Notes: generated by a model from the letters alone, not told the origin. 64,000 nt of DNA from Euglena gracilis (GCA_039621445.1 CP154954.1:46727847-46791846); one strand, 5' to 3'; shown: positions 2,925 to 62,883, numbered from the stretch's first letter. Numbers and translations are program-made.

Positions 2925-2975
<51 letters not shown>

Positions 2976-2997
2976 CATACATATATATGTATGTGTG

Positions 2998-3033
<36 letters not shown>

Positions 3034-4265: not shown

Positions 4266-4323
<58 letters not shown>

Positions 4324-13439: not shown

Positions 13440-13990
13440 GGCAGAAATTTACCCTCCCCCCCCTATGTCCAATGACCGGTAACCTCTGTCCTCTGACCGG
13501 GGGGGTGGTCGTTGGACATGGGGTCAAAAAAAAGTTGGTGGGTACCCAGTTCCCTACCCCCCCCCAAAATGCCCAAATTTCCCCTTCCGGCGCTTCGCGC
13601 CGAAAATTTTGGGCAATTTTGACAAATTTTGTCCAAAAAGTGTAAAAATGGCATTTTGGCCAAATTTTTGGCCAATTTTTGGGCAAAATTTTTCGTCCCG
13701 GCGCTTCACGCCGGGACCAAAAATTTGGTCAAACCTCCGAAAAGGTGTCCTCTGACCGGGGGGGGGGTGGTCATTGGACATAGGGGGGTCGTTGGACATA
13801 GGGGGGGGGGTGATGGTTAAAAAATCACCCAAAATCGCGGTTTTGCACTTTCTTTTTTTTAAAAAAAGGGGGGGTATGTGTGAACGTATGTATGCAAAAA
13901 AATTCCCTTGCGATTCGCGCCGAGGAAGCAAAAAAAATTACTTCTGGTTCTTTGAAGGGGGGGTTTAGATCCCTGGGCAGGGGGGGGGTC
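13440..13990. repeat. Dispersed repeat with TGTCCAA(C/T)GACC / GGTCGTTGGACA units (related copies at about 34160-34400, 35395-35530, 35660-36070)
   Basis: The string CCCTATGTCCAA(T/C)GACCGGTAACCTCTGTCCTCTGACC and G-run/GTCGTTGGACA units recur at these loci; ends not defined. Confidence 0.6.
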
Positions 13991-17300: not shown

Positions 17301-20300
17301 GCCGCCTGTGTGCGTCTCCTCCTCCCCCAGCTGTTGCTCGCTGGCGGGTTGCCCCCCTCCTCCGGGGGGTCAAGCAGCCAACCGCGGCCGGGGGGCACTG
17401 GACCGAACCGTCATCAGCCGTCATTGTGGGCTGCAGTCCAGCGAACCGGTGGGGGGGGTCAGGGGGTGGGGGTCCCACCGGCCGCCGGACTAGATCTGGG
17501 TGGCACCCAAAAACAGGCAAAAAGGCCCAAATCCAGCTGGGTTGTATTTTTAAGCAAATTTTTGAGCTGAAACCCCAAAAAAGAACCGCGTCCATTTTTG
17601 AGCATTTTTCCCAAAAGGTTTTGGCCCTTTGTGCCAAAAAAAAACTGTTTCGGTCAAGCCCGGCTTTGCCGGGCTGCGAAAACCTTATTACTGCTCAAAT
17701 TCCGGGGGGGGGGGGGGGGGGTCTGCAGCCTGACTGGGGCAGGAAAAAGGTTCTGGCTTGCTGGACCTCCCCAGGGGCAGGGTGGGGTCCAGCCTCCAAT
17801 ATGGACATTTTGGGCACTGTTTGGGGGTTTCGGTGCAAATTACCAGATTACCAGAATTGACCTTTTGGGGGGTCCAAGCCCCAGGGTCCCCTGGAAGGTT
17901 GGGGGGGGGGGTGATCCGGGCCCCCCTCTCAGCCTCTGGGGGTGGTGTGGCACCCCCCCCCTCTAACTTAGGCGGCGCGAATTGCCCAAGCGTTTTTTGC
18001 GTTTTTTGGTGTTTTTTGACTGTTTTAAAAACAGCGAAAAAGGAACAAAATTTTGAGTTCAAAGGGTTACGTGGAAGCTTTGGACCAAAATTTTATGAAA
18101 GCGGTTTTGTGCGGTATTCCGCGCATAGTGCAGTACACAACGTAGATGTACGTAAAAACAGGGGTGTTGAGACCCCTGTTACAGGTGCCAGAAAAGTACT
18201 ATATTGTAACGTGTGTACAACGTGGATGTACATTGGTGGTACGTCTGTCTTCACACAGTGTGTGAAGTGAGGTGCACAACACGAGTGTGTGCGGATTACC
18301 GCACAGACCAAACACAACGACGTGTGATACAGGGGTGTGTTGTGTGGTTGGTGTGTTGCGAAGGAAAACTGTGAAAACTGTGAAGTGTGGTTTAGGCGGA
18401 TTACCGCGTAAAGAGAACGCAGTGGTGTTTACGAAGTCCAGGCGGTAACCCGTGTAACCTGTGAAACACAGAACGAAGGTATTTGATGTTGGGCGGGAAT
18501 CCGCACAACACAGCACAACGTTTGTGGTGGGTGTGTGAGCCAGATTACGTGAGAGGACAGATGCGTTTACTTGAAATGTAAACGAAAAATGGTGGGGAGG
18601 CCGGGGGGACCGGGGGGCAGCGTCCTGTCTGTCACACCACACCCCGACACATCCCATGTGCCCTAACCGTCACCGGGACGGTGGCCCAGCCGTGGCCGGT
18701 GACGGGGGTGTGTCCGCCGGGTGTGGTGGTGGGCCAACAGTCGGCTGCCCCATCCCCCTGAAAGAGGGGGCGGTCCTCTCCCCGGCGACGCCTGCCTGTG
18801 TAACTCCCCGGCCTGAACAAGAACGAAGCGGCACGTGAACGGTGGGAACGCCGGTGTTTCCGCGACTGCGGTGATGGCTGGTCGCGAAACGCGACGCAGT
18901 GTGGTTGTCAGTAGAGGGGTGTGTGCGTTTCCAAACAGATGCACAACGGTCTGCGTGGTATGGAAAAGCCAACGGGATGTCTTGTGCGGGAATCCGTGCA
19001 ACACATTCCGAGTGTGCCAAAAAGGAACAGTGAGGAGCCCGGGTGGTCCTTTGACCTCTCCGCACCGCCGGGGCAGGTTGCCCAGACCTCCCCAACGGGG
19101 GTGCGGTTGCGGCGTTTGCGGACCAACGCAGCTGGGGCGACGACGCCCGTCCCGGACTCCCCCGACCGACTGGTTAGGAAAATGGAACCTGGGTGTTTGT
19201 GTTTCACGTTTTGGACGTTTGGTGGTACACCACTGCGTAGGCTCGCGATCGGAATGCGTAGGGCACCGGTCGGTTGTGCGCGTTGAGGTCTGGTGCGGGT
19301 GAGGGAGGCTGTGTGGTGTGGTGTTACACGCCAACGGCGACGATGTGTGCGGGTTTCCGCGTACAAGAACGGACCGACGCATTAGGCGTGAGGCCCACGG
19401 TGCACTGCACAAGATGTCCGCCCCTCCTCCCTCCTACGATTCTGGATCTGGATCGCGAGGCCTTCATTTGGCGTAACCGCCGGCGTGACCACCAACAGTG
19501 GTTTCGCGAATGTTATACAGTCCAGGTGTGATCTCTGAGGAGAGATGTTGGGCAAGTGGCTGTAACGGCCTCTTGTGGCCGAGCTCCCTGGGACCGCCCA
19601 CCCCAGTGGGCAACGCCACTGGTTCCCCGGCCGGTGCGGTCACTTGCCTACTTTTTTCCTTGCGTGCGGACGAGTGCGTGTACGGGTATCCGCTCGGGCT
19701 GCGTGTATACACGGCGTGTGTCCCTTTTGTAGGGTCTCTTTTCTTCTCTTCTGTGGTTGGTGCGGAGGAGGCAGGCTGAACGAAGCGGAAGCTGACAGCA
19801 GTTCCGTGTACCCCCGGGGGGGTTGGTCTAGGCCACTGAGGGGACTCAGTGCACACGCCCAACTGGGCCGCACGATTGCGTGCTGTAGACCTCCCCCGGA
19901 CACGACTACCTGGGACCCTTTCGCGACTGGGGGTGGTTGGTGGTACACGACTGGTTTACGGTTCCTGTGTCGTTCGCGAGACACATCCGTAGGGTGGACT
20001 GCTGCTCCCTTGACATCACCCAAAACAGGCCTCCTTCTACGACGTGGAGGTGTGGTTTGTGCGGGAAACCGCACAAACCACACCTCCACCCCCCAGATCA
20101 CGGTGTTTTTCCAGGGGTTATGTCGCAGCGGCACATCCCGTTCGCGAGGGGGTACAAATCGCGAGAATTCCAACATCCGCTTGTACCACTAAACACTCTG
20201 GATCGCGACGAGGTCCCAGGGCCTTCGGTTTTGGAGGGCCGTCTTACCTGGAAAAAAAAATAAAACAAACACAAAAAAAACGCAAAAACAACCAAAAAAA

Positions 20301-23300
20301 AAAAAAGAAAAAAATCGAAAAAAAACAACAACACAATAAAAAATCCAAACCATAAACAGCAATAAAAAAAAAAAAACATAAAAATCAAAAAAAAAAAGAA
20401 GTGAATCCCTAAAAAAACAAACAACCAACACCACAATAACCAACCAACAAAAAAACACACACTAAAAATTACAATAAAAAAAAAAAAAAAAAAATCAAAA
20501 AAAAAAAAAAAAGGAATCGCGCTCTTAATTGCGCCGTACGGACCGATCAGGGTACTGTTGCCCCCGCCGGCTTCAAATTTGAGAAACCCTGAACAAACAG
20601 CAGCCTTCCATGGCTTTACACGGGAACCCGCACAACAGCGCAGAATCAAACGCAAACGGTGTCGTGGTGAGTTACCAGCAAAGGAAATACAAATACATTG
20701 CGACGTTCCCACCAGTTGTGCAGAAACCCGCGTAGAAGCGGTCTACAATGGCTGCGGTGTGTGGTACAACACAGTGTGCTGTGATGACAGATTTGAATCC
20801 AAACACAGTGCAGTGTTGTGCGGATTCCCGTGTAAAGGACTGAGCCCTTGTCGACACGACAATATGACATTGCTCCACTGCCCACACGTGGGTGAAACTC
20901 CGTGGAAACTGCACATACGTGGGTGGTCTTTGTCCATTCACTGAAAACAGTGTTCAGCATGTACAGTAGATGTGTGTACATTGCGACCCTGAGTCACGCA
21001 CACACTCTCTGCTGCGCGGTAATCCGCACAACTCTCATCTGTCTCAGACTGTGCAAAAAAAAAAATGGCCGCCTCGTCTGAGACGCTGGTGTTGCAGCTG
21101 GACCAGCTGCGGGGGTACCTTGCCGGCGCACCTCCGGTGGATGGTTGGGCGATCCTGGAGGACGCCCTCCGAAGAGGCCAACTGGGAGCCCTCAACCTGG
21201 TGGAGACGGGCCTGGCCGTCAGGGCCAACCGCCGGTCCCGTCGCAGCCTGCGGGAGGTCCGGCGGGAGTACACCCGGCCCCCGTCCGAGCGGCCGATGTG
21301 GATGGCCCGCTTCACCGACGGGCTGCTGGCGCTGTGGAGGACGCTGCGACGGCTGGCCGTGCCCTTCGGCGAGCTGGTCACGCCGGCGGCCGCCCTGGCC
21401 CCCGCCCCGGCGCAGCAGACGCTGCAGGACCTGCCCCGCGCTACCCGTCGACTGCTGCGGCCCGCCGGTCTGGTGGGCCCCACGGAGGAGCTGGTGCGGG
21501 AGCGGGCGCGAAGGGCCCGGGACGCGGTGCTGCGGGCGTTGGACGGCCACCAGTGCGTGCTGTGGCTGGACAACTTCTGCTGGCTGCGGTGGGGCACGGA
21601 CCCCACCCAGCCCAGCTACAGCCGCAACGTCACCGCCCTGGGTTCAGGGTGCCTACTCTGCCTTCTCCAGTTGGTGAAGTGGGCCTGACGATGACCATCC
21701 GTGCATGACAAGACGTGCGCGGTTTTCCGCCTGGGAATGTTCTGTCTTATAAAATGCACTGAATGAATGAACTGTTCAAGAACACCACGAGTTGGGGTGA
21801 CACAGTTGGTGACAAGGGACAGGTGAACGGCGACACTGGTGAAAACAGAGCTGAACATCCCCCAAGGTGTGTACAGGGTTCAGTACAAAGGTGGTTGTCA
21901 GACGCGTGTGTGCGGGTTTCCGTGTAACCAGTGTTGGTTTGTACGGAAACCCGCACACTTCAGGGTTGTGTATGCGTACATGTACGTACCTGGTTGGCTC
22001 AGTGAGCAGGCCCTCTGTGCGGTGACTGCTGCAGATCGACCCCCTGCGAACTCGTCAGGGCACTTTGACGCGGTCCGTGACGTTCCCCGTGTCCACGGGT
22101 CACCCGGAGTTCGGGACGGTGGTGCAGCACCTCCGCTGGGCGGCCGACCTGTGCCTGCAGTCGGCGAAGAAGCTGCACCAGGCGGTGCGCGGCCTCCACC
22201 GGGCGGAGCTCTCGGTGGACAACGTCCGCGTCCCGCTGGACATGCAGCGGGACGCGATGCGGTCGCTGCGGTGGAGGCCCTTCTCCCTGACCGAGCAGAC
22301 GGTCAGCTCGAACCGGGACCTCCTCCAGCTCCTGGAGACCGTGCTGCAGCTGCAGGCGCGGTCGGGCCGTCAGCTGCCCCTCCTGGTGGATGAGAACATC
22401 CACTACCGCATCCTCCGCCTCCTGTACTCGGCCCCGGCGCTGCGCTTCCGGATGGGGGAGCACCTCGCCAACGTCCCCCTGCTGTACGGCATCTGGCATG
22501 CCTACAAGCACACGGTGACGGTGGTGTACCGGGCGTTCTTCCCGGTGCTGGCCCACCTGGAGGTGCCGGTTGGCGCCGGGGGCAGCCGGCAGCTCACGAC
22601 GTCCCTGCGGTCGCACCGGAAGGTGCTGTACATGGAGAAGCTGTTCGCCAGCCTCCTGTTGACCCGGGCCGACGTGCTGCCCCAGCCAGGGTGACCACTG
22701 CCCGAGCTGGCTGCTTTCAGGCTGCACCTGGTACATCGGACCAATGTTTGTGCGGTTATCCGCACAGTCATGTCGTGGGTCACTTGGTGTCACATCTCTC
22801 CCTTCTGTCCGTCACAGTCTGTCCGCGTTGTGCGGAAACCCGCGTAAAGGACCCTGGTGATAGGTCACGCAGGCCAACTTTGGGTGGAGACACTTCCAAA
22901 GCTCGTCTGTCACTCTGACGCCACCTGGAGGATCGTCTCCGGGAGGAGAGCCAGCGCGTGCACGTCTCCGCCCCCACTGCGGCCGACGCGTACGGCCCGC
23001 AGCTGCTCCTGGGGCTGCACCGCCTCCTGACCTTCTTCCTGCCGGCCCTCCTCCACCTCGGCTTCAAGGTGCGGCAGTGCACCTGGCGCGGCCGCCCCGA
23101 CGACGAGGTGAAGGGGGAGACGGCGCGGCAGGTGCTGGAGCGCTGCCTGGTCCTGCAGGCCCACCTCGAGCGGGCCATGAGTCCGCATGGCCTCCCCTCG
23201 GAGTACATGCGGACCATCTCCCTGGCCCTGCTGACCTGGCAGCCGTGGATGTCCCGCCTTCCCGGGTGCGTCTTCGTGGAGGAGGCCGGCGAGGCGATGC

Positions 23301-26300
23301 TGTCGCGCCTGTCGGGTGCCTGCCGTCGGTCGCCGTACGTCACGGACTTCCGGGGCACCCTGCAGCTGTTCCTCGGCCTGCCGCCGCCGTCGGGGGCGCC
23401 GCACGCCAGCCGGGGTTCCCTGCGGCTGGGACTGGTCGCCGAGATGACCCGCCGGGTGCGCCAGCTGGCGGACCACCCCGAGGGCCGCCCCTTCCCCCGC
23501 CGGGTGGACGCCACGCGGATCGCCTGGGTGGACGCCTCTGAGGTGGAGTTCCCCCGGTGGGGGTCCCCGCCCATCCTGCCGGAGATCGTGGACGTCCGGG
23601 CGCTGGAGGCCCTGATGCGGACCTCCCTCCTGACGTTGGTGAGCGGCCGGGCCCTGACCCCCGACATCCTGGTCTGGATGCGGGAGAACGTCGGGCCGGT
23701 GGACCCCCAGGAGTTCGCCCGTCGCCAGCGGGCGATGGACAACTTCCTCCACCAGCGGCAGCGGCGGCGCCGCAGCCCTACGCCTCCGGGGGACGTCGAA
23801 CCGGCGACCAGCGGGCAGGCGGAAACCCGCGCAGAGGCGGCGGCCCGTGCGGAAACCCGCGCAGCAGCAGAACCTGCACCGCCGGGGATGAGGCCTGCTG
23901 AGGAGTCCCCGGTGGAGGGCCGGGTGCGGTTCACCCCGGAGGAGCCCAGTTCCTCCGCGGCCGAGGCGGCGGTGGTGCAGCCGCCTGCGGTGCAACCGGG
24001 ATGGCCGGCGCTGGAGCTGCCCGAGGCGGAGAGCCTGTACGAGCCGCCCAGTACAGCGGAGTCGCTGTACGAGCCCCCGGGCACGCTGTCCGAGGGGTAC
24101 GTCTCCCCGGCGGCCTCCCAGACGGCCTCGGCAGTCTGGGGGAGCTGCCTGAGCAAGCCGCCCGACGTCATCGGGGTCCTCCTCCTCGGATGAGGACCTC
24201 AGTCTCTCCCCGGCGGTGTGTGTCCCTACCGGACCCCGGTCTTTCTACGTGGTCCTGAACCTTTCTGTATATCAGGGAGTCAGATGGAGGCCTTCAGAGC
24301 GAGGGTGAGGGTTTGTTTCAGAATGTAAAGGGGGTGGCGGGCGGGTTTCCGTGCAAAAGCATTCTCCACCCAGCCAGAAGGGGGGTGCTCTGTGGGGTGG
24401 TCACTGCTGTGTTTCCTTTAATGACAATTATTTTTTTGATTGAACTGACTGTCCCAGATTTTGTGCTTATTTATATTCACAAAAGTGTTTGTGTGGGGAC
24501 TGTTTCTGACCTGAATTTCCTTCATTTCGGCTGTTTTCACGCTGCCTCGTTTTTTTAGACCTCTGATGGCAGCCCGGAAGCCCACGGCGCCCACTCGCTC
24601 GGCGACGGAGCTGGTGTCGAAGACCCCGACCCCGCTGGCCCGTGTCCGGAGGGGGTCTGGAGCTGGCTGGTGTGGTTCTGTACTTTTTTTTTGGCCGTAC
24701 AATCGTCCGAGGGTGTTTGACGGTTCCTCATTCCTGGGATGTTTTCGAAAGTACAGGAGAAGTCACTCCGTTTGTTAGACGACACTCACCCAGTTTGTTT
24801 CAGTGTCATTGACGCCCTTTGGTTTCTACAGCTGTGCGGGTTTCCGTGCAAACCGCTCAGATTTGTGTTTGGCGTGCGCGTGCAGCAGACAGACCAGTTG
24901 AAACCCTGGAGAGCCAGACAGCCTCCGCGCCTTGACGTGTTGGTGCTGGACGAGACCCTCACGCGAGGGCAGGTGCGGCGGGTCGAAAAGGCCCACGTGG
25001 ACAGCCTCGTCAAGGCGTTCACGGAGAACCCGCCGGTGGGGGCCCTGAGCTTCGTGGTGTGGCCGGAGCAGGGTGTGTTTTGTTTCTGCGAGCATAGTTG
25101 GCCAGCCTGTCTGTATTCATGGATGTTGTAAATGGCGGCGGATGCTTCGCACGTGACGAAATAATGAAATATACACCATTTGTTCTTTTTTTTTTGGAGT
25201 TGGGGTGGTGATCCAGGCGGGAATCCGTGCACCTGAACAAAACTCAGTGGCACTGTTGTCCTCCCTGTTTTCACAGCGACGGGGAAGTTCGTCATCCTGA
25301 GCGGGCAGCACCGCTTCCTGGCGGCCACCCAGGTGGCGGACGCGGCGGTGGCCGACGCGCGGCCGGCGCCGCAGTGGACCGAGTGGTTCAACTGCCACAC
25401 GGTGCTGGGGTCGGCCAGCCTCGAGGAGAGGCAGCGCGTGGCGGGGAGCATGCAAGCCCGGGACGGGACGGTGAGGGAGATGTCCCTCAGCCAGCGGGTG
25501 GAGTGGCTGGAGCGGGAGGTGGAGCGGGAGCGGCCGGGGGCGGTGCCGGACGGCGAGGCGGGGACCGCCGCCCGCCTGACGGTGAACCGGACGGAGCTGC
25601 TGAAGCGGGTGTACGTGAAGACGGGGTGCACGGAGGCGTCCCACGGCAAGATGGTGTGTGCGCGGATTTCCGTGTGCGCTGTTTTCCGTTTGATGCAATG
25701 CACGGATTCCCGCTGACACGGCTGGCTTCCTTTCTTTTTTTGCTTGTCAGAGGGAGAGTGAGTGCGCGCACCCTGTCCTTTGATATTCCAGCTATCACGT
25801 ACACATCACTCTCCCCCCCCCCAACTCTCCCTGACCTCATCTGTGCAGGACAACTGGGTGAAGTCCATGCAGCCGCTGGCGGAGTGGCTGCTGCACAGCG
25901 GGCGGCCGGTGGTGGAGGCGGTGCGGGCGCTGGAGGCGCGCCCCACGACGGGGCGGTGGCGGCGGCGTGTCCCAGTACGCGTTAAAGACGATCGAGCAGC
26001 TGTACGACCCGCAGGACTACGTCGCCCTGACGAGGGAGATGCTGGACGAGGCGGCGAAGGCGACGACGGTGCGGCTGGTTCGGATGTCCATTTCACTGTC
26101 TGTCTCCGTTGGGACTCTGCCCGCACTTTCACACAGACAGCCAGACACAGGCGCACGCACACAAGGAAACTGTGATCATACGGGGGACAGTTCAACCAGT
26201 TTTACTGTTCGAGTGGATACAGAGACAGTACGCGGTAAACCGCACACCACACCATGCGCGCTGGGGTGGAATGTGACGGGGGAGGAATGGCACTCCGCCG

Positions 26301-29300
26301 TCAAGGCGGTGGTGGGGACGCTGATCCGCCGCCGCGCGTGGACGTGGCTGCTGATGCACCCGGACCTTCACCACGTTCACCCGACCCGCCGTATGTCTAC
26401 TCTGCGCTGTCTTCCGCACTGTGTGACCACACGGTTTATTCTTAAGGTTGTGGTTCTCAGGCGGATTTCCGTGCAGATCTCCATTTTGTCATTCTCATGC
26501 GGGTTTCCGTGGAAAGACGCTTGTACATGGAAGCGTGTGTAGTGAGGGGATTCTTTCCTGAAGTCACCGTTCTCGTGCTCAGGTACCCTGGACATGGTGC
26601 CCAGCCTGGAGCAGAGCATGGACAGCGCGGACATCAAGGTGCCGCTCACCGGTACCAACTGGCGCTGGTCGGCCCAGCACCCGTGCGCAGGACTCTCCAG
26701 GACACGTGTGTGCACTTTTTCCCTTTACCTTTGGTTAGTTACACATGATTTTTTTTTTGGTACACGGGAACCCGCGTGAAATATCACAAGTCACATCACA
26801 ATGTTACGGAGTGCAGCTGTTTCATTTTTGTGTGTCCTGGCTCAGGATTCTCCCTGCGATGTCTGAGGGTCGGGGGGGTCCTGAGTCCGGCCACCGCGGG
26901 AGGCGGTCCTCCGCTCCCCCCTGTGGGGGACTGAGCGCTACGCCCCCCTGCGGGCGCGGCTGGCCCAGCCGCTCGCTGAGCCCACGGTGCGGTACGGGGG
27001 CCGCTTCTGCACCCTGGACCTCAGCGGTGGCGGCGGTCGGCGCGGGGCGGCCACAGCGGCGGCCGGCAGCAGCCGGGAGGAGGCGGAGGGGTCCCCCAGT
27101 CAGCCCACGTCTGGGGAGGGGGAGCTGTTTGAGGCTGGCTCTCCGCGGGCGGGCAGCCGGTCCACCCGGGGGCGAAGAAGGGCGGAGGCGGCGGAGCGTG
27201 GGGAGAGTCCCGAGCCGTCCCGCCTGGCGCACGTGGTCCCCCTCCACCCCACCGCGGGGATGCCGCGGGAGATCATGGAGCTGAACGTCGACGCGGTGGT
27301 GGTGGAGGTCCCGGACGGGCTGAGCGACGCCGACGTCCACCCTGAGCTCCTGAGACTGTGGAGCCGTGGGGTGCCGTTCGTGGCCACGGGGCGGGCGTTC
27401 GCCATCGGGGCCCTGCAGCAGACCCTGCAGAAGGGCATGGACGTCCCCGACGAGATGCGTCGTGTGGACGTCACCCTGCACCGGCCGGTGAAGTCCAACG
27501 TGGACCGCACCTACCTCTTCAACGTCACCACCGTCACCGCCCTCTTCAGCAGCAAGACGGACTTTCGGGTGTGCACACCCTTCGTTTCGGTTTTTATTTT
27601 AAGCAACAGACTGTTCTCTCTTTTTTTGGGGGGGGGGCACGGGAATCCGCACAACTTTGTGGAGTGCACGGGAATCCGCACAGGACAGATACACACCCGT
27701 GCACACAGGGGATAATGTCCGTGCACACGAACGTTTCTTAAGATCTACGCTATGACTCAGAAAATCAATGTTCCACTGCCGTGAGGTGTTGGCACACCTT
27801 CATCTCCCCCCACAGGTGCCGCGGCAGATCACCCTCGTGGGACAGGGTCAGGGCTGTGTTTACACTGAACAAACAAAAAAAGCAACATCACAATGACACC
27901 ATTGGTCAGTTCATAGGTATTGGTACAGTTCTGTTCATCGAAATGATTCCAGGTCCAGGTTAGACGGTTTTCCGTCCACTTCTCGTGATTATTCCATTTC
28001 TCCTGGTGAAAGAACGACGTTTAGTTCCACAGGGTGAATTTCTTTTGGCCAATTCCCTTTTCAATCCGCACTCGGCTTCCCTCCCGCCTGAAGCTGAGAC
28101 ACAGCTCTGCGGGGGAGGGGCCGCCCACCCTGCCGGTGGAGGTGGCGTGGTGGCTGCTGGCGCGGCTGCACGTGGAGGCCCACGACTGGGTGCTGGCGGT
28201 CACCCGCCACGCCGCCCTCCCGGCGGACCTCGCCACCCGGCTGCAGGTCCCCATCGGCGTCATCTGGGGGGACCCCGACCTCCTGGAGGAGGCGGACGAG
28301 GCGATGCAGCTGCGGGTGGACCAGCTGCAGCGCGAGATCAAAGTGGCCGATGGGAAGCCGGCCATCCTGTGGGATCAGGGCGCCACCCCGGTGCAGGCCA
28401 GACGAAGGGGGGGGGGGACGTTTGCCCGTATCGACTCTGCGTGCATGAGCCGTCAGTACAGCATCGGAACGTGACGCACAGCGTGCACGCGGTTTCCCGC
28501 GCACAGTGCACGCGTGCGGATTCCCGTGGAGCGGTGTGCTTGGCTGTTGCTATGACTGGTTTCTCCGTTTTTCATCCCGCCCCAACTGGGTGGTGGTCCC
28601 TGTGGCCATCAACGTCCACCACCGCATCACCCACCACGAGCCCCTGGACGTCTCCGGCCGGGGCGGGCTGGAGGAGGAGGAGGAGAAGGGGGAGAAGGAA
28701 GAGGAGGACATGCCCCCCCGGCCAAAGAAGAAGGAGCCGGAGAAGAAGGGCCGGGAGCCCTCGCCCCCGCCGCCAGCCAAGGGGCGGGGCAAGAAGGAGA
28801 CCCCCGCCAAGGGGAAGGAGAAGGAGAAGGAGAAGGCCCCCCCGGCCGCCAAGGGGAAGGAGAAGGGGAAGGAGAGGGCCCCTGCCGCGAAGGAGCCTGA
28901 GGCCCCGGTGACGCCGGCCAAGCAGCCGTCGACCGGCGGCGGCGCGGCGGCGGCGGGCCGCAAGGGGGCCTCCACCCCCTCCGGGCTGCGGAAGGGCGCG
29001 GCCGCACCGCCAGCAGCGGCGCAGGAGCCGCCGGCGCCGGAGACCCCGGTGACGGGCCGCAAGCGCACGGCCCGCACCCCGCCGCCCGCCGAGTCCGCCG
29101 CCGGTGAACCGGAGGACGAGATTGAGGAGATCGTCCCGCGACCGCCCCCAACACGGTCCCCCCTTCAGCGTGTGTCCTATCAATGTGCTTCCTTCAGCCC
29201 CTGGGTTTTGCAGCCACAGCTTGGCACGCGGGAAACCGCACACGTGCGTCTTCTTCTGCGCTGCACGGAAACCCGCACACAATCTCCTATACTCTTTTTT

Positions 29301-32300
29301 GGGTTCAGGAGGTTTTGCGTGCACACAGCCTGTGCCCTTACAAAGTCTGGACGGATCTAGGACCCTATGTTCGTCAGTGATGTTCTGCTTGCAAAGTGCA
29401 CGGGAAACCGCACACAGCTTGCTGACTCATTCGGTACACGCGTACACCCCTCCCTCCCTCCTCCAAACCATCAAGTCCAAGGGGGGAGGGTCAGCTGAAG
29501 AAGAAGCCCACGCCGGCCGGCGCGCTGGAGGAGCTGCTCAACGTGTGAGCAGCAGCGGGGGCCGGGCGGGCCGGGCGGGCGGGGCGGGGCGCGGCGGGGC
29601 GGCAGGCAGCCGCCATCCCCACTGAGTGCACGGCCGTGGACGGCCGTGGGCGGCCGACGGGAGCAGCTCTCTCTGCACCCTGCTGTGTGGACCGCCCGAG
29701 GCTTTTGAACCTGGGACCGCCCGCTGCTTTTGTTTTTCGTGTGTCACACACCCTCACCGCACACCCACTGTCCCCGGGGACTGCCCAAACGCCTTTCACC
29801 TTTCGACGGGAACCCAACCCCTGGACCACTCCATCATCCCGTTTGTTTTTCACCTGGGACCCACCGGACGCCCCAACCGCCGTGTGAGGTCCAGGGCACA
29901 CATTCCTGGTCACCCATTCAGTGGGCCCGTGTCCAACCAACCCTTTCGTTATTGCAGTGCACAGAGTGTGTAGATCCCTCTCTGACACATACCCCTCTCT
30001 GAGACCCGTGTGCCCTGGACCTGGAACACCCATTCGGCTGTCCGTTTGTCCCCTCCATTTGTCTCTCTTTTCCCCTCTGGACCGCCCACAGAGACTTCGT
30101 CTCACTCTCTTCCCCCCGGGACCAAGGACCCCTCCAGGACCAGGACCAGTGCTGCACGGTGATCCGCACAAACACACCCTTCCCCTCCCACCCTTCTTTC
30201 TGTCGTTGCGCTTCGTGTGCTATCGCAGTCTCTCTCTGGCAGGCGGGCGGTGAGGGGGAGGGGGCATGGGAGGAGGGCTGCCTTGGGTTAGGTGCCCCAG
30301 TGGATGTCACGTCCAGTTCCAAGTCAAACGTCCCCATGAGTTTCCCAGTGTGTTTTTGCACGGATAACCGCACAAGTTCACTTTTAACCATTCATAGTCA
30401 CTCAGCCCCCTCTCGTAGTGTTAACCCCTTCGCGCATGCTGCATCTGTCCTGTGCGGTTTCTCGCCTAACAGACCATCTGTCAAAAATTACAGAATCAGT
30501 TCCGCAGTGGTGTTCGTTTCCCCCCTCCCGTCACTGGTCGTTGGCACTCACCAGTCCTCCAAAAGTGCACGGGTTGCTTACGCGGGTGCCTCTCCGTCAC
30601 AGGTTTCGCCATGTCACCCCCCTCCCGGAGGTGGGGTCCGGCTCCGTCGTGACACGGCCGGGGCTTCGACGGTCAGGTGTTCTCCCACCCCTTCCCCGTT
30701 TTCATATTTTCGGCCTGGTTTCTGGGGGGTATTTCACAAAATCACCCCTTTTCAGCCATTAATTTCCAAAATCGGTCACGTGTCAAAACTGTGGAAACAG
30801 GCGGAAACCCGCGTACAATTTCGGGGTTGCAGTAACTATCACAAATATCAGTTGAGTTTCGGGGGGGTGGCCTACACGGAAACCCGCACACCTGGACCGC
30901 CTAAAAAATGGCATAAAATTTGGGCAATTCGCGCCGCCTAAGTCTAACCCTGCCCTCCCTGCCCCCCCATGAACAGCTTGGGCTGGGAACGCAACACGGA
31001 TCCTCCACAATGCTGCACAATAACGCGCAAAAAAAAGCAGCAATTTTGCCAAAATAAAAAAGGGAAAATACACACCGCATGTTCCCCCTGAACGGACCCA
31101 TGGCGGTGCCCCCCGCTCCTCCTCCTCCTTCCCTGCCATGGCCTCGCGCTTGGCCTCCTGGCGGGCGACGTCGGTGACGCGCAGTGGGCGGCCGACCACC
31201 GGGGCCGGCACCTCCCGCCACGTCATGTACGGGGACACCTTCGCCGGGCGCTGCTGCCGGGGCGGGGGGATGGGTGATTTGGGCGGCGGCGGCAGCTGCT
31301 GCTGCTGCTGCACAGGAGGGGCGACGTCTGGGTCGATGGGGACAGAGCTTGCCCCTTCATTGGCAGCTCTGGCAAAAAAAGAAAAGAAAAGCACAGGAGC
31401 AAGGGTTCGTTGATTTTTTGATCTCCTACCTTTTCCTGTTTCATGGTTACAAGTCACGTGCAATTATTCTAGAATAAGAAGACCAAAATCCTATACCTGG
31501 CTGTCTCTGGGGTTTTGAAAATATGGAAAGTGCCAATGGAAAACCCCTCAGGTTTATTATTATTATTTGGGGGGGACTCCCCAAATAATATCCCCCCCTG
31601 GGAATTTTATTTGGTCGGCCGAAGTCCACCCTCAGGGGGGGGGGAGAGTATTATTTGGGGGAGGATATTATTTGGCAAATTTTGTTTTTTTCTGTAAAAT
31701 TTTGACCGCAGCATGCATTGTACTCCATGTTGAACACCACCAAAGCCCATGGTGCCATGGTGGGTGGAATTATTGTTTCCAAAAAGTGCAATTTGGTTTT
31801 CAATCTGAATACGGTAGAATTCATATAAAACTTGCACAAAAATGTGGTTCCAGCTCTCAGGAAAACTCAGGTTTTTCTGTAGTGGTCCGTGAAAAATGGA
31901 AAGATATCATTTGGGGGGGTTACCTACAGGAACAGATCGGACAGCATCGTGTGCAAAAACTCCAGCTTCACCAACTACTGACAGCACATTAGAGATGCAA
32001 TTGAGTTTTGCGCGTTGAAGCTCGATGCCAAGGGCTCAATACACCACTGGCACCCAAACAGCTGATGAGGGGCCAGAGGTGAGGAAAAGCACCGTGCTTC
32101 AGTGATTGCTGCTGCAGGGCCAGGCACGGTGTCAGGGCACCGAGGGATATCGGAGATCGGAGATCCCACGGCGCATTTCCCCCTTTAACCAGGCAGGGTG
32201 ACAGAAGATTGGGGGAATGGCACACTTCCATGCGCCACGAAGTGGCTCTCCTTCAGTGCGGTTTTTGATCAAATTTGGTCCCAGGGTTGCGCTCTTTGCT

Positions 32301-35300
32301 TTGCAACTAGGTCAGAACACGGGCATATGGCCATGCGTCAAAGACTGTGTTGTTTGTTCACCCCAAACTGCTTGGGCAGTGTGGGGTGAACCAGGGGGGG
32401 AGGGAAGGTAAGAGTAATTCTGAAGAAAATCAACAGAAATCAGGCAGGTGGGGTTTAAATAGAAGCACCCCCCCCCGCGCTGCCACCAGAGGCGGAGGTC
32501 GCTGCAAGCACCCCCGTGCTTCAGTTCGGTGGGGGGGGGCTACGGTTCCTGGCTTATTTGGGAAGAGATTGATGGGAAGTGGTTTTGGCCCAAACCCGCC
32601 TGTCCATCAGAACGGTTGCCGTCCCAGCACACAGGAAAGCCGGCCCCCTGGGCTGCAGCAGAGGGGAGTGGCCCCTGAGGCACTGGGTCCGGCGAGCCCC
32701 CCGCTGGGCGTCCAGTGGCGGGCTGCTCATTGCAGGGGGCAGCGTGGCCGCCAAGTCCCCGAAGCTGGACAGCGGCGAGGCCATACGTTCACTTGATGAC
32801 CACCCTGGGACTTTTACCCAGGCCCACAATCCCCCCAGGGGGGAGGAGGCGCCGGCCCACCCGAAACTTCCGAAATCGGCCAAAAGCCCTCGAAATGGTT
32901 TTCCAGTCTGGCCAAAGGCCCAGGTTGCACCCCCCCAGAGGGACTGGCAGGGGGCAGCCCCCGAACATGTGCAGATAACCTCAAGGGGGAGGTGGGTTTT
33001 TTTATCAAACAGTGTTTCTCAACATCAGTTGGCAGGATGGTACAAAATTATTATACCTTGATGCTCAACCCCCCAGGAAGACCAATTTCAGACAGTGGCC
33101 AGGTCTTGTTCAGGGGTCAGTGGGGTTTTATGAGGTGAATTGAATATGTGGGCTTATACGGAAAATGACCCTCTGACCGAGTGGAATAATTTTGTACATG
33201 TTGGGATGGAACTTCACCATAGGAGGAGGACCATCCGAGTGGGTGGGTTATCAGGAGTCTGTGGTGCCCAACCCATTGGGCCATTGGACCCGGGTTCTTT
33301 GTTTGGGGGGATGCTCCTCAGGCACCTTCGATCATGAGTCGCCTTTCTTCAGAGGAAACAGAGGAGGGCACATCGGGCATTGCCCAGCCATTGGCATTGG
33401 GGTTGGGAGGCCTATTTCAAACCGGCGGGACTCAGGGCTGCGGCGCAGGCAAGCTGCCCGGCGGAGGCCGCCTTGCCCGGGCCGCCGCTGAGGCTCCACA
33501 AGGGGGCGTCCCCAGAGGCGGCGTGGCGGCCCAAACTGCCACCCCCCCCCCCCCGCGCCATGGCAATGTGATAGGGGGGCTGGGCCAATCCTTTGGGGCA
33601 ATTCCCCGTTTGTCCGATTTCATATGTGCGTGTAATGTGAAAGCATTGCTTTTCCCACCCTCAATTCCAAAAAGGAGGAGGCTTGCCAAATGTCACATTG
33701 CTCGTTTTGACCCTTCTCTGGACTTGGACAACTGAATTCTGGACAGAGGTTTTTTTTAGGACTCGGTTAGGATCCACCCCCCCCCGGTCACAAAACTTAA
33801 AAAAAAAACTGTTTCTGGAGTGCAAAGAGGAGGACCCACAGGTTGGCCCCCCCTCAGCCTCTGCCGCAGCCAGCCAGGAGGCATTGCCACCGGCCCCATC
33901 CGAGTCCCACGGCAGCGGAGCGTCCCATGAGCGACGCCGAGATGGCCTCTCTGCACGCCAACAGCCACCTTCTCGCGACTCCAGCCAAAGACCTTAATCT
34001 GGCACGTAGTGCGCTACCCCTTTTTTGTCGCCCCCACCATCCCCTTGTGGAATTCTTGTGTTGAACTGGACGGGTGGGCGGGTGGTGTCGGATGGAAAAA
34101 AAAACGGGACTGGGGCTGGGCAGGGGGGAGCGTTCAATGGGAATGGGGATGCCTTGCGTACCCTCCCCCCCCCCTATGTCCAACGACCGGTAACCTCTGT
34201 CCTCTGACCTGGGGGGGGGGGGGCAGTCGTTGGACATAGTGTCGGGGAAAAAAGTTAGTAACCAAAAAGGTAGTGACCAAAAAGGTGTCCTCTGGCCGGG
34301 GGGGGTGGTCATTGGACACGGGGTCGGGGAAAAAAGTTTGCCGAAACCCCCCCAAACAGGTCAAAATTTTCTTTCCGGCGCTTCGCGCCTCCATTTCCAG
34401 CCCTGTCAACAAATATTTCCTCAAATAGCACCCAAAACATACCTTCACGCCGCGGGATTTCACGAAAAAAAACAAAGTCAACAATCCCGGTCGACAATCC
34501 CTGCATTCCATCAACCATCTTCACTCCATCATACAACCCAGCAAACACCCGAAAATGTCATGGTGGAATGTTGGGAGTGTGGTGAAGCCCCCCAAACAAC
34601 CGTAAGCACTACAGTGTGGCCAAAAATTACGGAAGACAAAAATTACGGCAAAAAAAAATTACGGGAAAAAAAATTTTGGCAAAATTTTTATTTTGGAAAA
34701 ATTAATTTTGGCAAAATCTGGTCCCTGTGAAGGATTGACCTCTGGCACAGGTGAGCGACATTTTTGTCCTAATTGTGTGTTCAATGTATTTTCTGTCCCC
34801 CAGTGGCCACAATCACTCGAGGTATTGTGGCACGTGCCCGTCCAGCAACGCTTGCAAAAAAAATGGGGGAACGTTCAAGATCGGTCAGGCATGGGCAAAA
34901 TATTCGCTGGCAAAAACAGAATGGAGGCCGTTCGCTGCAACTTCTGATAGAATTGTGCCACTGATCAGGTGTCAGTAATTTCTAACGCAGAGCGATTTTT
35001 GCTGTGATTTTCCCCAGGTGCTTGATGCCGATCGCCCGTTTTTCAAGGAGCTGGCTGAGCATATACCATTGAAGAAACTGACATTCAATTGGGATGAGTA
35101 TTGTGTTCTTTTGGGCACAAACCGGAAGTGGGCTGAAAGAGGGCGTCGGAAGCCGACGGAGTGAGAAAATTACGAGAAAAAAAATTATGGCAAAATTTGG
35201 GTATTTTGCCAAAATTTCTGTCTTCCGTAATTTTTAGCCGCACTGTATCTCCCCGGTGGAGCCCTCGTAATGCACAAAACTCCCCAGAGGGAACATTTTA

Positions 35301-38043
35301 ATGGATGATGGGCTGCGGGGTTGAGGACAAGGGTGGAAGAAAAGCCTTTCAGGGCTGGCAAACCTCCGGTTTTCACACACCTGCAAAAAAAACATCAAAC
35401 CTCCGAAAAGGTGTCCTCTGACCGGAGGGGGTGGTCGTTGGACATAGGGGGGTCGTTGGACATAGGGGGGGGGGGTACATGAGAAGGAAATCTCTTTACT
35501 TTTTGCAGACCCCCCCGGGGGGGGTGCTAGCACAGCCAGACCGTCCAACCCTGTTCCAGCCCAAATTTTTTTTTGCCAAGCTGAAGAATTTCAATGAAGT
35601 GATCACAGCCACTTTCAGGGACAGCACTAAATCAAACCCGTTCCCAATTACCTCCCCCCCCCCGTCCAACGACCGCTAAATATCGCCACTGACCGGGGGG
35701 GTGGTCGCTATTCGGGCCAAATATCGCTACTGACCGGGGGGGGAGGGAGGGGGTTGTTAGACAAGACCGGGGTCAAAAAAAATTTCTCCCGCTTCGCCAC
35801 AAGGTGAAGAAAAAAGTTTCCTTTGCCTGACATGGCCACAACTCTCAAATTCATAAATTCATGATGAAAAATGGGAGAAACATGCAATCAACAGGCAAAA
35901 ACTTAGTGACGATAGAGAACTTGTAGACCAGGTACAAAATCCGCCATGAAAGTTGTAAGGAAAGGCAGAAGCCATTATGCGAACGTCTGGAAAAAAAGAT
36001 CACCTGGAAAAAGATCGCTACTGACCGGGGGGGGGGGGTCGTTGGACAAGGCCGGTAGTTGGACAAGGTGGGGGGAGGGAAGACCTGTCTGTCCGCCCCC
36101 CATTCAGGTTCCGTGTCCGTTCCTTTGCGCCGAGGGTCGCTGGCCCGCCCTCCTCCGCCCCGGCGGAGCCCCGCGCCGCGGGCTCCGCCGGGGGCAGCAG
36201 CGCCGCCGCCGCGAAGCGCTGCGGGCCGGCGAACGGCAGCGGCCGCACGTCCGGCGAGGCCGGGCGCCGGGCCGGGCCGCCGGGGCGGTGGGCGGGGCCC
36301 GGGGCGGGCCCAGGCCGATGCCGGGCCGGGCGGGGGTCGACCCACCCCGGGGTGGGGCCCCGCCGTTGGGGCCAACCCCGAGTGGTGTTGCCTCCGAACT
36401 GGACTGCTTGGCGTCAGTACAGGGACAGTGGGGATGAAGGCAGCGGTGGGCAGCAACTCGGTGGAAGACGCCTGCTTGGTGCTCTTTGGCGCACACAGGC
36501 ACTCACAAAACCCGCCCGTGACAACAAAAAGGGTCTGTTTTGCACCGGCCTGGTCCTCAGGCTGCCGGGGAGGGGGGGCGGCGGCGGCAGCCACGTACCG
36601 CCGCTCCGCCGGTGGGGCAGAATTTCCCCGGGGCGGAGCCAGCGGCAGGCGGTGGGTAGGGGATGTCTCCACAGTCTGTAAACTCCCCCCCAAAAAATCC
36701 ATCCATTTCTCCGAACGTCCAGGGGGGTCCTATTTTGAGGGGGGGTTATGCACTGCAGTCAAGCGTCGGGCGTCCACCGGCACACACCCCCTGGGGATGG
36801 CCAACCTTTATCCATCGCCTGGCCGGCACCGAGACGCGCCGGGGCAGCGGGACCAGCCCGCCCTTCTCGGCGGGTGGCGGCGGGGGCGGCGGAGAGGTGG
36901 CGGCGGCGGGCTGGGAGGGGTCCGCCGAGAAGGGGCGGTCGCGGGCGAGGCCGGGGAAGCGGGGCACCGGAGCGGAGCCGCCCGACGCCCGCCCGAAGAC
37001 CGGCGCCGTGGGCGGACCCCCGGTGGCGACACAGCCCCACTCTGAGCAGACATAATGGACGCCCCCCCGCAGCGGCAGCCACGGCTCATATGTGGGACGC
37101 CTCGTAAAAACACCCCCCCCCCCCGCAGAGAATCCCATGTGGTCACCCAGATCAAATTATAGTCAAGAGCAGTTCAGGCAACAAGCACCGTCGATGGTCG
37201 CTCACTGCAGGTGGTGGAAAGGCTTCCTGTTGGTGCCAGTTTTGGTGACTCTCCTCCCGAAAACTCTCCACACAGCAAACGCGGTGTGGACAATGAGGAC
37301 AATTCAACTCTGCAGATTTGCACCTCCGAGCGACCCTAACATCTGAAAAAACGCTCTTGTCAGGAATTTGTGATCGCAGTCCTTAAAATAACGTTTGCAT
37401 CTTTCTTCATTTCTGGAAAAAATTCTGATAATAGCTCTCGATGGGGATGTAGAATTTTTTTTCACCATTTGAGGTCAGCAGGAACAGAGACAGGAGACGA
37501 AATCAATAAGACAGGCGACAGACAAGCGACCAAATAGAGTAAACCCCCCCTGAATATACGACGGGTCGTTATCTGACTTTTCAGTTGGTGGAAAATCCAG
37601 AGGGGGTTGCTATAAATGGGGGTCGTTATCAGAGGGAGGCTTTGCTGTTTTCCCTACCACAGCTATGTCTGACACACTTTCTACCATCCTTGCTGGCTTT
37701 GTGTGTGGCATTGCTGAGCTTGAGGAGTCCGACAGCGACTACCCTGACCACGGCCCCCGTCCAAGCAGCGGTCGATTTGCTCATACTTCAAGTAAGCGCT
37801 GGTGAGCTTGGACGCTCTTACGTGAGATGCATCATCTTACCCGTGCTTTCTGCTCTTTGTCAACCATGGGTCGTTATATTTCTTTTTTGGTGGAAATTCC
37901 AGGATGGGTCGTTATAAATGGGGGGGGTTCATTATCAGAGGGGGGTCGTTCTAAATGGGGGGGTTTACAGTTTTCTAGCAAAAGAAATATCTGGGGAGGG
38001 GTTCTCCCACGGGGTTTTCATGTTTGTTTGTAGGACGTTGGAT

Positions 38044-38130
<87 letters not shown>

Positions 38131-40366: not shown

Positions 40367-40407
<41 letters not shown>

Positions 40408-40414
40408 ACCCACA

Positions 40415-40465
<51 letters not shown>

Positions 40466-40529
40466 GCGCGCGCATGCGCGCACACACACGCACACACATA
40501 CACACACACACACACATGCACGCACACGT

Positions 40530-40608
<79 letters not shown>

Positions 40609-41768
40609 CGGCAGAAAAACCAAGAGGTACACTCACCCACTCCATCACACACCATAACTAAGACGTTCCAACGTTCACCACCTGCAAAGAAAAAGGAAGC
40701 GATGTGGGCAGCACTGGCCCCGTGGGAGGAGCCCTCAAGTCCTTGACAGTCCGCAGCAGAGACTGGCTTCCTACCTCTTTCCCCCACCAGCACCATCCCC
40801 CACCGCAAAAAATCTGCATACACAGTCACTTACAATGGCCACTTGTTGCTAGAAGTCGTCTGCGCAAGTCGCACACATCTTTGGGCACCCTCGCACCCAA
40901 TGCGGGCGGTCATCATCAACATCGGCATCGTCCCAGGCACACACACGTGTGGACAGCGTGGCGGTCATTTTGGTTTCCATTGAACTCCATCGAGGCAACG
41001 GCCTCAGCATCATCAACACCCCCACCGCCCCCTTCGCCGTGCGTCCAGCCAGCCCCGGGCCACGACCTCCGGGATGGCGCGGATGAAGTGCGAGAGGCGG
41101 GTGTACCCGAGCTGGACGAGGAGCTTCGCGATGGCCGGGTTGCTGAACCCCGGCAGCCGCAGCAGCATGGTGACCTTCAGCCCGCCCTGGTTCATCTGGA
41201 GGTACCTGCGGCCCGGGGGTGGGAGGGACCCACCGGCGTGGGGCTGCGACCGACCGGCCGTGGCAGCCACGCAAATGGCGCAGAATACTCCGGTTGAACT
41301 GGTGGGTGGCGGCGGCCAGACATTCAGAGCCAGTGGGCTTCCAGAGAGATCTTTGCAACTAAATACCCCCAATGCCCCCCGGATTACACAAAATTGGAGA
41401 AATGGCATTTTCCCCCTCGGGTGCTCTGAGGTCAAACAACGTGTCTTTTTAGAAACAAAACCTGGCAGTTTTTCTCGAAAACCAATTTTTTTTTGCAAGA
41501 AAACCCAGCCACCTTCAACAAAAAAGAACAAGTAGAGTATTTTCATAGAGAGCCAATGTTCGGAACAGAAATCCAAAAAAAGCCCCCCCCCCCCCGAATA
41601 ATTGCCCCCCATGAATTATCCCTCCCCAATTTTGGGGGGTTTACAACATGTATGCACATTGAAAGGTCACTTGGACCTACAGGATACAAATCTGTCCAGG
41701 AGGAAAAAATGTTAAATCCTTCCTGAAATATTGAGCAAACGGCACCCCACAGGCATATATATATATCT

Positions 41769-41812
<44 letters not shown>

Positions 41813-41854
41813 TTATATATATATATATATGTATATATATATACATATATATAC

Positions 41855-41897
<43 letters not shown>

Positions 41898-42029
41898 GAC
41901 ATACATACATACATACATACATACATACATACATACATACATACATACATACATACATACATACATACATACATACATACATACATACATACATACATAC
42001 ATACATACATACATACATACATACATACA

Positions 42030-42062
<33 letters not shown>

Positions 42063-62800: not shown

Positions 62801-62883
62801 AAAGCAGAATCAAAAAATTCGTAAATTTGCGCAAGTGCGCAAATCAAACAAAAAATGCTTAAGTGCGAATTAGGCCGCCTAAG
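59876..62883. mobile_element. Second subfamily B element (3,008 bp), colinear with 48237-51227
   Basis: Ends CTTAGGCGGCCGAATTCGCACTTAAGC and GCTTAAGTGCGAATTAGGCCGCCTAAG; TSD TCGGT (59871-59875, 62884-62888); similar to 48237-51227 along its whole length, same orientation. Confidence 0.92.

Follow-up and report, generated by a model that had tools for sequence, protein, structure and literature searches.

Repbase counts 23 superfamilies of DNA transposons, 21 of which have DDD/E transposases. Transib/RAG elements generate target-site duplications (TSDs) of 5 bp and have CAC termini, while P and hAT elements generate 8-bp TSDs and have termini of other kinds. CACTA/En-Spm elements (with TnpA and TnpD) and PIF/Harbinger elements (with a transposase and a Myb-like protein) are two-gene systems that contain repeated internal motifs and produce 3-bp TSDs. 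Academ lineages are described as encoding an XPG nuclease or a helicase along with the transposase (PMC10045372). Large accessory proteins with a ParB-like part have been reported on algal transposons: Sola1-1_Ec32 of Ectocarpus, a 21.5-kb Sola1 element, codes for a 1104-aa protein with ParB-like and DNA methylase parts (PMC12477816), and Plavaka elements of Bostrychia carry PAG3, a ParB N-domain joined to a 2-oxoglutarate (2OG) oxygenase, beside inverted-repeat arrays to which, as the authors propose, PAG3 binds (bioRxiv 10.1101/2025.02.11.637652). Dam-type methylases fused to a ParB helix-turn-helix (HTH) domain are known in chlorophytes and chytrids (PMC4738411). Here, we describe a 12,976-bp element, located at positions 17967-30942 of a 64,000-nucleotide stretch of Euglena gracilis DNA (GCA_039621445.1 CP154954.1:46727847-46791846; the whole 64-kb stretch is referred to as the window), and compare it with these systems.

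We consider it probable that the 17967-30942 element is a full-length copy of a cut-and-paste DNA transposon with terminal inverted repeats (TIRs) and 5-bp TSDs; the grading applies to the explanation presented here as a whole. The window contains eight exact copies of the 9-mer CTTAGGCGG, which form four inward-facing pairs, at 6724/9672, 17967/30942, 48237/51227 and 59876/62883. When one mismatch was allowed, 25 matches to CTTAGGCGG were found in the window versus 11.2 expected, and none of 100 shuffles reached 25. The four elements are all bounded by CTTAGGCGGC...GCCGCCTAAG ends, and exact 5-bp direct repeats, no two of them alike, flank every pair: ACTTG in the case of 6724-9672 (+ strand, 2949 bp), TCTAA in the case of the 12,976-bp element, TGGAT in the case of 48237-51227 (+ strand, 2991 bp), and TCGGT in the case of 59876-62883 (+ strand, 3008 bp). 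A first-pass annotation of this DNA had claimed four insertions with common ends, each with a different exact 5-bp TSD, and all four were confirmed. Thus, TIRs and TSDs of fixed length, which mark TIR cut-and-paste transposons when found in several independent insertions, are present in each of the four elements.

The TIR of the 13-kb copy is a perfect 23-nt repeat, CTTAGGCGGCGCGAATTGCCCAA, with the 5' TIR at 17967-17989 (+ strand) being the reverse complement of the 3' TIR at 30920-30942 (- strand). The left TSD, at 17962-17966, is repeated exactly at 30943-30947. A subterminal motif, TTTAGGCGG, is found at 18391 in the 5' arm and at 30897-30905 at the 3' end. The 5' non-coding region extends from 17990 to 21064 (+ strand) and is without codon periodicity. 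An A-rich, low-complexity tract of ca. 270 bp (20247-20520, GC content ca. 0.2-0.3) lies within this arm, and may be a remnant of a nested insertion.

The other three elements fall into two groups. The 2949-bp copy has the same 23-nt TIR as the 13-kb copy; the two have ca. 156 bp at the 5' end and ca. 220 bp at the 3' end in common, at 76-84% identity, and share nothing in between. We conclude that the 2949-bp element is a non-autonomous relative of the 13-kb element. The two 3-kb copies, 48237-51227 and 59876-62883, are 89% identical to each other, but agree with the 13-kb copy only over terminal nucleotides 1-10 and differ from it at position 11; they are non-autonomous elements of a second family. 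The possibility that the 3-kb copies are products of a segmental duplication was rejected, because both their flanks and their TSDs differ. According to the Repbase rule, elements belong to one superfamily when their TSDs are of equal length and an alignment of their terminal positions 1-11 shows no more than one mismatch (PMC4455052). Since CTTAGGCGGCG and CTTAGGCGGCC differ by a single mismatch and both variants have 5-bp TSDs, the two terminal variants are grouped in one superfamily under that rule. Elements of the second family are dense with short palindromes of a type of their own (GCGCGCAAATGCGCGC) and with longer sub-repeats (D5, D7, D16); the 13-kb family has a different internal motif, even though both families are identical over the outermost 10 nt of their ends.

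Contigs from four public runs were aligned to positions 17900-31000. In each of the four, 29-30 of 30 bins of the element were covered, by contigs that are too short to report on the linkage of the two genes or on splicing, and whose depth is not usable as a copy number. The contigs contain many internal-deletion joints, such as the one connecting 18414 to 23816 with filler letters, which recurs in three of the four runs. Such a pattern is expected of a DNA transposon that is present in many copies together with deletion derivatives.

The GC content at third codon positions (GC3) climbs to 0.9-1.0 in ca. 14 exon blocks of the 13-kb element, every one of them on the + strand, and is flat over 17967-21000 and 29600-30942. 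The element is therefore read as two genes with long non-coding arms. The first-pass annotation had likewise proposed two spliced genes in tandem; the GC3 blocks and the colinearity of gene 1 with its homologues (below) bear this out, but gene 2 is a model prediction only. Exon 1 of gene 1 (21065-21641, + strand, ATG at 21065) contains WLDNF with the first putative catalytic D, and is supported by its open reading frame (ORF), GC3, tblastn matches to the environmental homologues P0004, P0009 and P0002, and alignment; its 3' boundary is inferred and accurate to a few nucleotides. Exon 2 (22024-22679, + strand) contains RVPLD, LLVDEN (with the second putative catalytic D) and GIWHAYKH, and is supported by its ORF, GC3, tblastn and alignment, with boundaries deduced from frame and homologue length. 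Exon 3 (22919-24193, + strand) contains FVEEAGEA (the region of the putative catalytic E), an acidic C-terminal tail with ESLYEPP repeats, and the stop codon. Joined through frame-preserving junctions, the three exons make up 835 codons that are open throughout, and gene 1 looks intact from its sequence. Those junctions that preserve the reading frame as well as the length of the homologues do not form GT-AG pairs (intron 1, G/GTTCAG...GCGGT/GA; intron 2, CTG/CCCCAG...CTCTGA/CGC; slashes mark the junctions). Both introns have CAG at +4 to +6, which is a reported trait of non-conventional introns of euglenids (PMC11282704) and is consistent with the host that the first-pass annotation had supposed.

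The three ORF blocks of gene 1 are colinear, end to end, with environmental proteins of 750-820 aa, at 45-58% identity. Among 2619 candidates for the middle exon, 29 longer proteins reached E≤1e-3. The last exon matched 371 representative clusters at E≤1e-3 in 1.84 billion representatives, including 179 at 1e-10 and 45 at 1e-30; for seven of the clusters that were looked up, the only name was "hypothetical protein". The full-length homologues checked were all environmental, and none of them had a precomputed Pfam domain. When 108 distinct family members (8 + 10 + 90) were scanned against Pfam at E≤10, no transposase family was matched, DUF6589 and RAG1 included, and no family was common to more than two members. 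None of nine exon ORFs of the element matched Pfam at E≤1, and a gene 1 profile search of Protein Data Bank (PDB) sequences gave chance-level matches only. A search for related loci with a narrowed alignment found one 1237-bp locus, without flanks, in the metagenome_contigs collection and no locus in viral_contigs.

Conservation was counted in 111 aligned sequences, using only the members that cover each site and the numbering of P0004. D181 of WxDN is conserved in 43/43 members, R273 and D277 of RVPLD in 47/47 and 46/47, D327 of LLVDEN in 52/52, and H363 of GxWHxYK in 61/66. In the EExxEA motif, E530, E531 and E534 are conserved in 98/99, 100/101 and 99/102 members, respectively. The window copy has all eight of these residues. 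We conclude, from sequence comparison, that gene 1 belongs to a family that has no name, is covered by none of the Pfam transposase models, and occurs widely in environmental data from eukaryotes. The tail encoded at 23990-24110 has ESLYEPP...S.GYVSP repeats that are kept in closer homologues (C-termini of P0002-P0015), and over which the confidence of the structural model described below is very low; as a short linear motif, this tail may interact with a partner from the host.

To obtain a predicted fold, an AlphaFold2 model of P0004, the nearest full-length homologue, was built from the 111-row alignment (mean pLDDT 86.1, pTM 0.79). The order of elements in the model is β1 (176-185, with D181), β2 (199-208), an 80-residue insert, β3 (289-294), α1, β4 (324-326) followed by D327, a helix, β5 (357-359), ca. 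150 residues of helices, and a helix starting at E531. The β1-β2-β3-α1-β4-α-β5 core and the three conserved acidic residues of DDE/RNase H-like enzymes are thus seen in the predicted model of the homologue, and the product of gene 1 is predicted to have the DDE layout of RNase H-like enzymes, together with an insertion domain of ca. 150 aa that is entirely helical. The RNase H/DDE fold that the first-pass annotation expected of the first protein is in this way upheld, as a prediction for a homologue in which D/D/E is near-invariant. A Foldseek search of the PDB with the model placed P element (two chains, best E 0.015, probability 0.99, TM 0.27 and 0.42) and Hermes (seven chains) transposases at ranks 1-9, but all of them were below threshold. 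HzTransib was at rank 13, with a probability of 0.20. Searched against BFVD, the model had no match at E≤0.001, and the best transposase-like row was at rank 16, with a probability of 0.16. The best-supported description of gene 1, as judged by the model, is that of a DDE transposase from a family without a Pfam model, whose predicted fold comes closest to those of P and hAT enzymes. The "Academ/Transib-like" label that the first-pass annotation had given to this protein finds no support in that form: no Pfam transposase model matches in the 108 members, HzTransib appears at rank 13, and the link to DUF6589 consists of a language-model score only.

That score does lend weight to an alternative that we regard as a substantial possibility: the element may be a very diverged member of an existing superfamily, likeliest of the DUF6589 type, with the 5-bp TSD and the cargo being variations of its lineage. 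DUF6589 is possibly the domain of Academ-type transposases. In an ESM-Atlas feature search with gene 1, PF20231 (DUF6589) was present in 29 of the 30 nearest clusters, with a score of 0.93 and 190 of 256 features shared; the "recognition" value was 1653, below the mark of 2300, so that the high score counts as weak evidence. Consistent with a distant tie, TSD length varies within Academ, being given as 3-4 bp for AcademX and 9-10 bp for AcademH (PMC10045372), and a 2017 account has RNase H domains of Academ without a Pfam model and most abundant in Pucciniomycotina (PMC5751038), in agreement with the bias of the DUF6589 clusters toward Basidiomycota. On the other hand, the PF20231 model itself matches none of the 108 family members, even at E≤10, no XPG nuclease or helicase domain was found by Pfam in the nine exon ORFs, and a 5-bp TSD is unlike that described for either Academ lineage. 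The gene 1 family may be a deep relative of DUF6589-type proteins; the description of gene 1 as a DDE transposase of a family of its own is the one used below.

Gene 2, the accessory gene, is predicted from GC3 periodicity and ORFs to extend from 24566 to 29548 on the + strand in ca. 11 exons. The approximate blocks are 24566-24652, 24886-25073, 25286-25654 (with the GQHR motif), 25850-26078, 26262-26380, 26585-26680, 26870-27568, 27816-27850, 28100-28390, 28590-29165 (K/E-rich) and 29480-29548. At least three of the predicted introns have plain GT-AG borders. A 1335-nt contig (X16, record 23, from a run guessed to be RNA) skips exactly 27568-27814, which is a predicted GT-AG intron of gene 2; this contig could derive either from splicing of a transcript or from a processed copy in the DNA.

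Two kinds of leads point to the origin of the gene 2 product. The 25286-25654 exon carries the GQHR motif block, and the exon preceding it ends in a strand-helix-strand-like block. In PHROGs, the GQHR block has a weak match (E 0.3) to phrog_723, "ParB-like partition protein", and in the atlas search, gene 2 scored 0.89 with DUF6551 and 0.84 with a cluster containing ParB_N, both under the 0.9 threshold for a lead. Further downstream, the stretch encoded at 27233-27466 is similar to residues 1-78 of a DNA methyltransferase from a Klebsiella phage (26/78 identical; tblastn E 0.01 in the phage collection, pairwise E 1e-7), a protein that is itself an N6/N4 methylase of PF01555 (E 1e-30). The alignment includes IDAVVTDPPYGLS, and gene 2 reads EVPD where the phage enzyme has DPPY. 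The catalytic DPPY, an instance of the (D/N/S)PP(Y/F) motif of N6/N4 DNA methylases, would therefore be lost in gene 2, and gene 2 does not match PF01555. Published ParB-fused accessory genes on algal transposons raise the prior for this assignment, and from these sequence similarities we consider it reasonably likely that gene 2 is an accessory gene derived from a ParB-methylase fusion.

An 18-bp palindrome, which the first-pass annotation had not recorded, is dispersed through the element. The dyad TRYRCGG-N4-CCGYRYA, with one mismatch or fewer, has 39 matches in the window (24 of them exact) versus 0.29 expected; 29 are in the 13-kb element, 10 in the 2949-bp element, and none elsewhere. 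With a stricter core pattern, all 21 matches lie inside these two elements, versus 0.04 expected. The 29 copies of the 13-kb element are spread over 18108-30890, in 5' and 3' non-coding DNA and in predicted introns, with one in the tail of exon 3. A regular-expression scan assigned 33 sites as follows: 16 in predicted introns, eight in the 5' arm, three in the 3' arm, one in the low-complexity tail of exon 3, and five in the 2949-bp element. The number of copies in the 5' arm, eight to 11, varies with the pattern used. When two pattern scans are combined, each predicted intron of gene 1 and gene 2 has at least one palindrome. A general feature of host introns is ruled out, since there are no matches in the window outside the two elements. 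The sites are found in both orientations, which makes an RNA hairpin unlikely and favors a binding site for a dimer at the DNA level. Several variants start with TAGGCGG, which resembles the terminal CTTAGGCGG, so that each palindrome may represent a duplication of the half-site recognised at the ends. By analogy with the systems introduced above, we infer that the putative ParB-like head of gene 2 is an attractive candidate for the palindrome binder, with the N-terminus of the transposase as an alternative.

Several observations weigh against the explanation as a whole. Gene 1 is named by no profile library (Pfam, with 108 members; NCBIfam, which was blank), and its fold was modelled on a 58%-identical homologue, P0004, rather than on the spliced protein of the window. 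None of the 500 Foldseek matches counted had E≤0.001, and the TM values of the P element matches are low. In the case of gene 2, there was no significant match in Pfam, PHROGs, NCBIfam, PADLOC or PDB, and the residues similar to the phage methylase also match the beta-lactamase-like domain of ComEC (E 0.006), while the exon expected to hold the S-adenosylmethionine (SAM)-binding motif shows no methylase similarity. Finally, the codon periodicity of gene 2 switches frame inside an exon, near 25954-25968, without an intron and within a GGC-rich run. One contig end at 25953 (X1) has 2 nt fewer and 1 nt more, a net change of -1 nt by which the frame is kept, and one or two further contig ends at 25968 (X1, X2) carry a similar frame-keeping variant. 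Because the periodicity switches frame within an exon while the contig variant keeps it, gene 2 of this copy is probably frameshifted and defective.

Some of these points could also mean that gene 2 is an unrelated passenger or a lineage-specific gene, possibly a decaying one, whose weak similarities are due to chance. The blanks in five profile or structure-sequence libraries, the competition of methylase and ComEC matches for the same residues and the frameshift of this copy all fit that view, as does the lack of homologues, in a search of 5.8 billion proteins, for the 25237-25716 exon (among longer proteins) and the 26885-27715 exon (among proteins of near length). Additional searches with gene 2 were likewise negative. 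A read-through of two exons, with X at intron stops, was also blank in Pfam, NCBIfam, PADLOC and PDB; a single-sequence AlphaFold2 model of an exon-intron-exon read-through, with X at the stops, had no usable fold (pLDDT 36). By tblastn, the ParB block had no match in phages (exon 25288-25653) or in plasmids (read-through), and the methylase block matched in plasmids only a LacI-family protein (E 0.8). We nevertheless find it doubtful that gene 2 is a mere passenger. The ParB-like leads of PHROGs and the atlas on the GQHR block, followed downstream by a methylase motif IV lead, stand in the order of ParB-methylase fusions; large DNA transposons are known from the literature to carry ParB-fused accessory genes (PMC12477816; bioRxiv 10.1101/2025.02.11.637652); and the very strong codon periodicity of gene 2 shows recent selection for coding. 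The ParB-methylase-like partner named by the first-pass annotation is thus retained as a lead: there are weak matches toward it (phrog E 0.3, atlas 0.84-0.89, tblastn E 0.01), but ComEC competes for the same residues, and DPPY reads EVPD.

That the 13-kb element is itself non-autonomous, a "Pack"-type carrier of captured host genes with the transposase located elsewhere and gene 1 being domesticated or a host gene, would fit its large non-coding parts and the accessory-only gene content described for some giant algal transposons (PMC12477816), but we hold it to be very improbable in view of the predicted DDE RNase H-like core of gene 1 with its near-invariant D/D/E and transposases as nearest solved folds, the contigs from all four runs that cover all parts of the element, and a gene 1 family that, as is usual for proteins of mobile elements, comprises hundreds of diverged clusters.

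For the preferred explanation, a full-length cut-and-paste element, the following mechanism is proposed. The DDE transposase encoded by gene 1 would bind the 23-bp TIRs and cut at the CTTAG ends. The element would then be inserted into a target cut with a 5-nt stagger, and gap repair would give the 5-bp TSD. The 3-kb elements would be deletion or MITE-like (miniature inverted-repeat transposable element-like) passengers mobilised in trans. The gene 2 product would consist of a diverged ParB-like DNA-binding head and a methyltransferase-derived domain whose catalytic DPPY has been lost; the head, or else the N-terminus of the transposase, would bind the 18-bp palindromes and thereby mark or organise the element. 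In a bolder version, which we consider improbable but worth stating, the element would represent an undescribed DDE lineage at the superfamily level, widespread in protists, in which a ParB-derived, dead-methylase protein loads on ca. 30 parS-like palindromes to mark, compact or synapse the element. Because a palindrome is present in every predicted intron and some intron borders are non-canonical, the family might then also bear on the origin of euglenid non-conventional introns from transposon sequence.

Part of this picture is new and part is already known. The palindrome array is new, as is an unnamed transposase family that lies outside current profiles; the 5-bp TSD of the element is unusual. 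Algal transposons have previously been reported to carry ParB-fused accessory genes, and gene 2 probably belongs to this recently recognised class. The first-pass annotation had stated that the combination of ends, transposase and cargo fits no recognised superfamily; this is right in that profile searches found no described family, but ParB-fused cargo has been published (PMC12477816; bioRxiv 10.1101/2025.02.11.637652; PMC4738411). The element is undescribed in the literature found with Euglena or with ParB-like terms together with transposons, a coverage that leaves out most subscription journals and Repbase Reports. If the gene 1 family is a superfamily of its own, it adds to the eukaryotic cut-and-paste enzymes a widespread and unannotated protist lineage of hundreds of diverged clusters, and a second lineage with 5-bp TSDs beside Transib/RAG. 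ParB-headed accessory proteins of a DNA-modifying type on large transposons would extend from red, green and brown algae to another supergroup, here with apparent loss of the catalytic motif. The 18-bp palindromes are a candidate binding site that can be tested directly. The family seems to be very abundant in the organism, and is otherwise liable to be mis-annotated as host genes.

The remainder of the window contains features of other kinds. A 132-bp repeat, 92% identical between its copies at 6446-6577 (ca. 150 bp upstream of the 2949-bp element) and 62951-63082 (ca. 70 bp downstream of the last 3-kb element), probably represents a separate family of repeats. A G-rich unit with GGTCGTTGGACATAGGGG (D14, D18), found at 13498-13818, 34216-34338, 35406-35474 and 36027-36077, is unrelated to the transposon. 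ORF blocks with strong GC3 periodicity that resemble host exons are present outside the elements on the - strand, at 30948-31463 and 37968-46794, and one such block adjoins the right end of the 13-kb element; none of six host-like ORFs tested has a Pfam match. Long (CA)n/(GT)n and related microsatellites (2897-3025, 4217-4355, 38008-38160, 40334-40550 and 41699-42101) dominate the output of the repeat finder, where they give rise to spurious long inverted repeats.

Compared with known systems, the modelled gene 1 homologue is, among solved structures, most like the transposases of the P element (6p5a, 6pe2) and of Hermes, a hAT element (6dww, 4d1q, 2bw3, 8sjd), which also have an RNase H-like DDE core with a large helical insertion before the catalytic E. 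In this comparison, E is above 0.001 in every case, TM does not exceed 0.42, and identity is 8-10%; neither hAT dimerisation nor THAP domains, by which hAT and P enzymes are defined, were found by Pfam in the 108 gene 1 members. The 5-bp TSD and CTTAG ends of the 13-kb element also set it apart from P and hAT elements, with their 8-bp TSDs. By language-model features, fungal DUF6589 (PF20231) proteins are nearest, and their size, 860-1080 aa, is similar. With respect to Academ, the TSD is 5 bp rather than the 3-4 bp (AcademX) or 9-10 bp (AcademH) described (PMC10045372), and neither of the companion domains of Academ, the XPG nuclease and the helicase, was detected in the nine exon ORFs with Pfam at E≤1. 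Transib/RAG1-like systems have in common with the element a 5-bp TSD and a DDE transposase with an insertion domain, but the ends are CTTAG instead of CAC, there is no match to the RAG1 Pfam model, and HzTransib ranks only thirteenth in Foldseek.

In overall organization, CACTA/En-Spm and PIF/Harbinger resemble the element in outline, with a catalytic protein, a second element-encoded protein and many short internal motifs; there is no sequence or profile similarity to them, and the TSD is 5 bp versus 3 bp. In architecture, the element resembles Sola1-1_Ec32 and the Plavaka elements with PAG3, as far as these are described (PMC12477816; bioRxiv 10.1101/2025.02.11.637652): in all three cases, a large TIR element combines a transposase with a big accessory protein and short inverted repeats, which here take the form of GQHR and methylase-motif-IV-like blocks and of 29 palindromes. 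The element differs from both in that its transposase belongs to another superfamily and that its two genes, for the transposase and the accessory protein, share one strand. Its putative ParB and methylase domains escape detection by profiles, with EVPD standing in place of DPPY, and its palindromes are scattered through predicted introns and non-coding DNA instead of forming tandem arrays.

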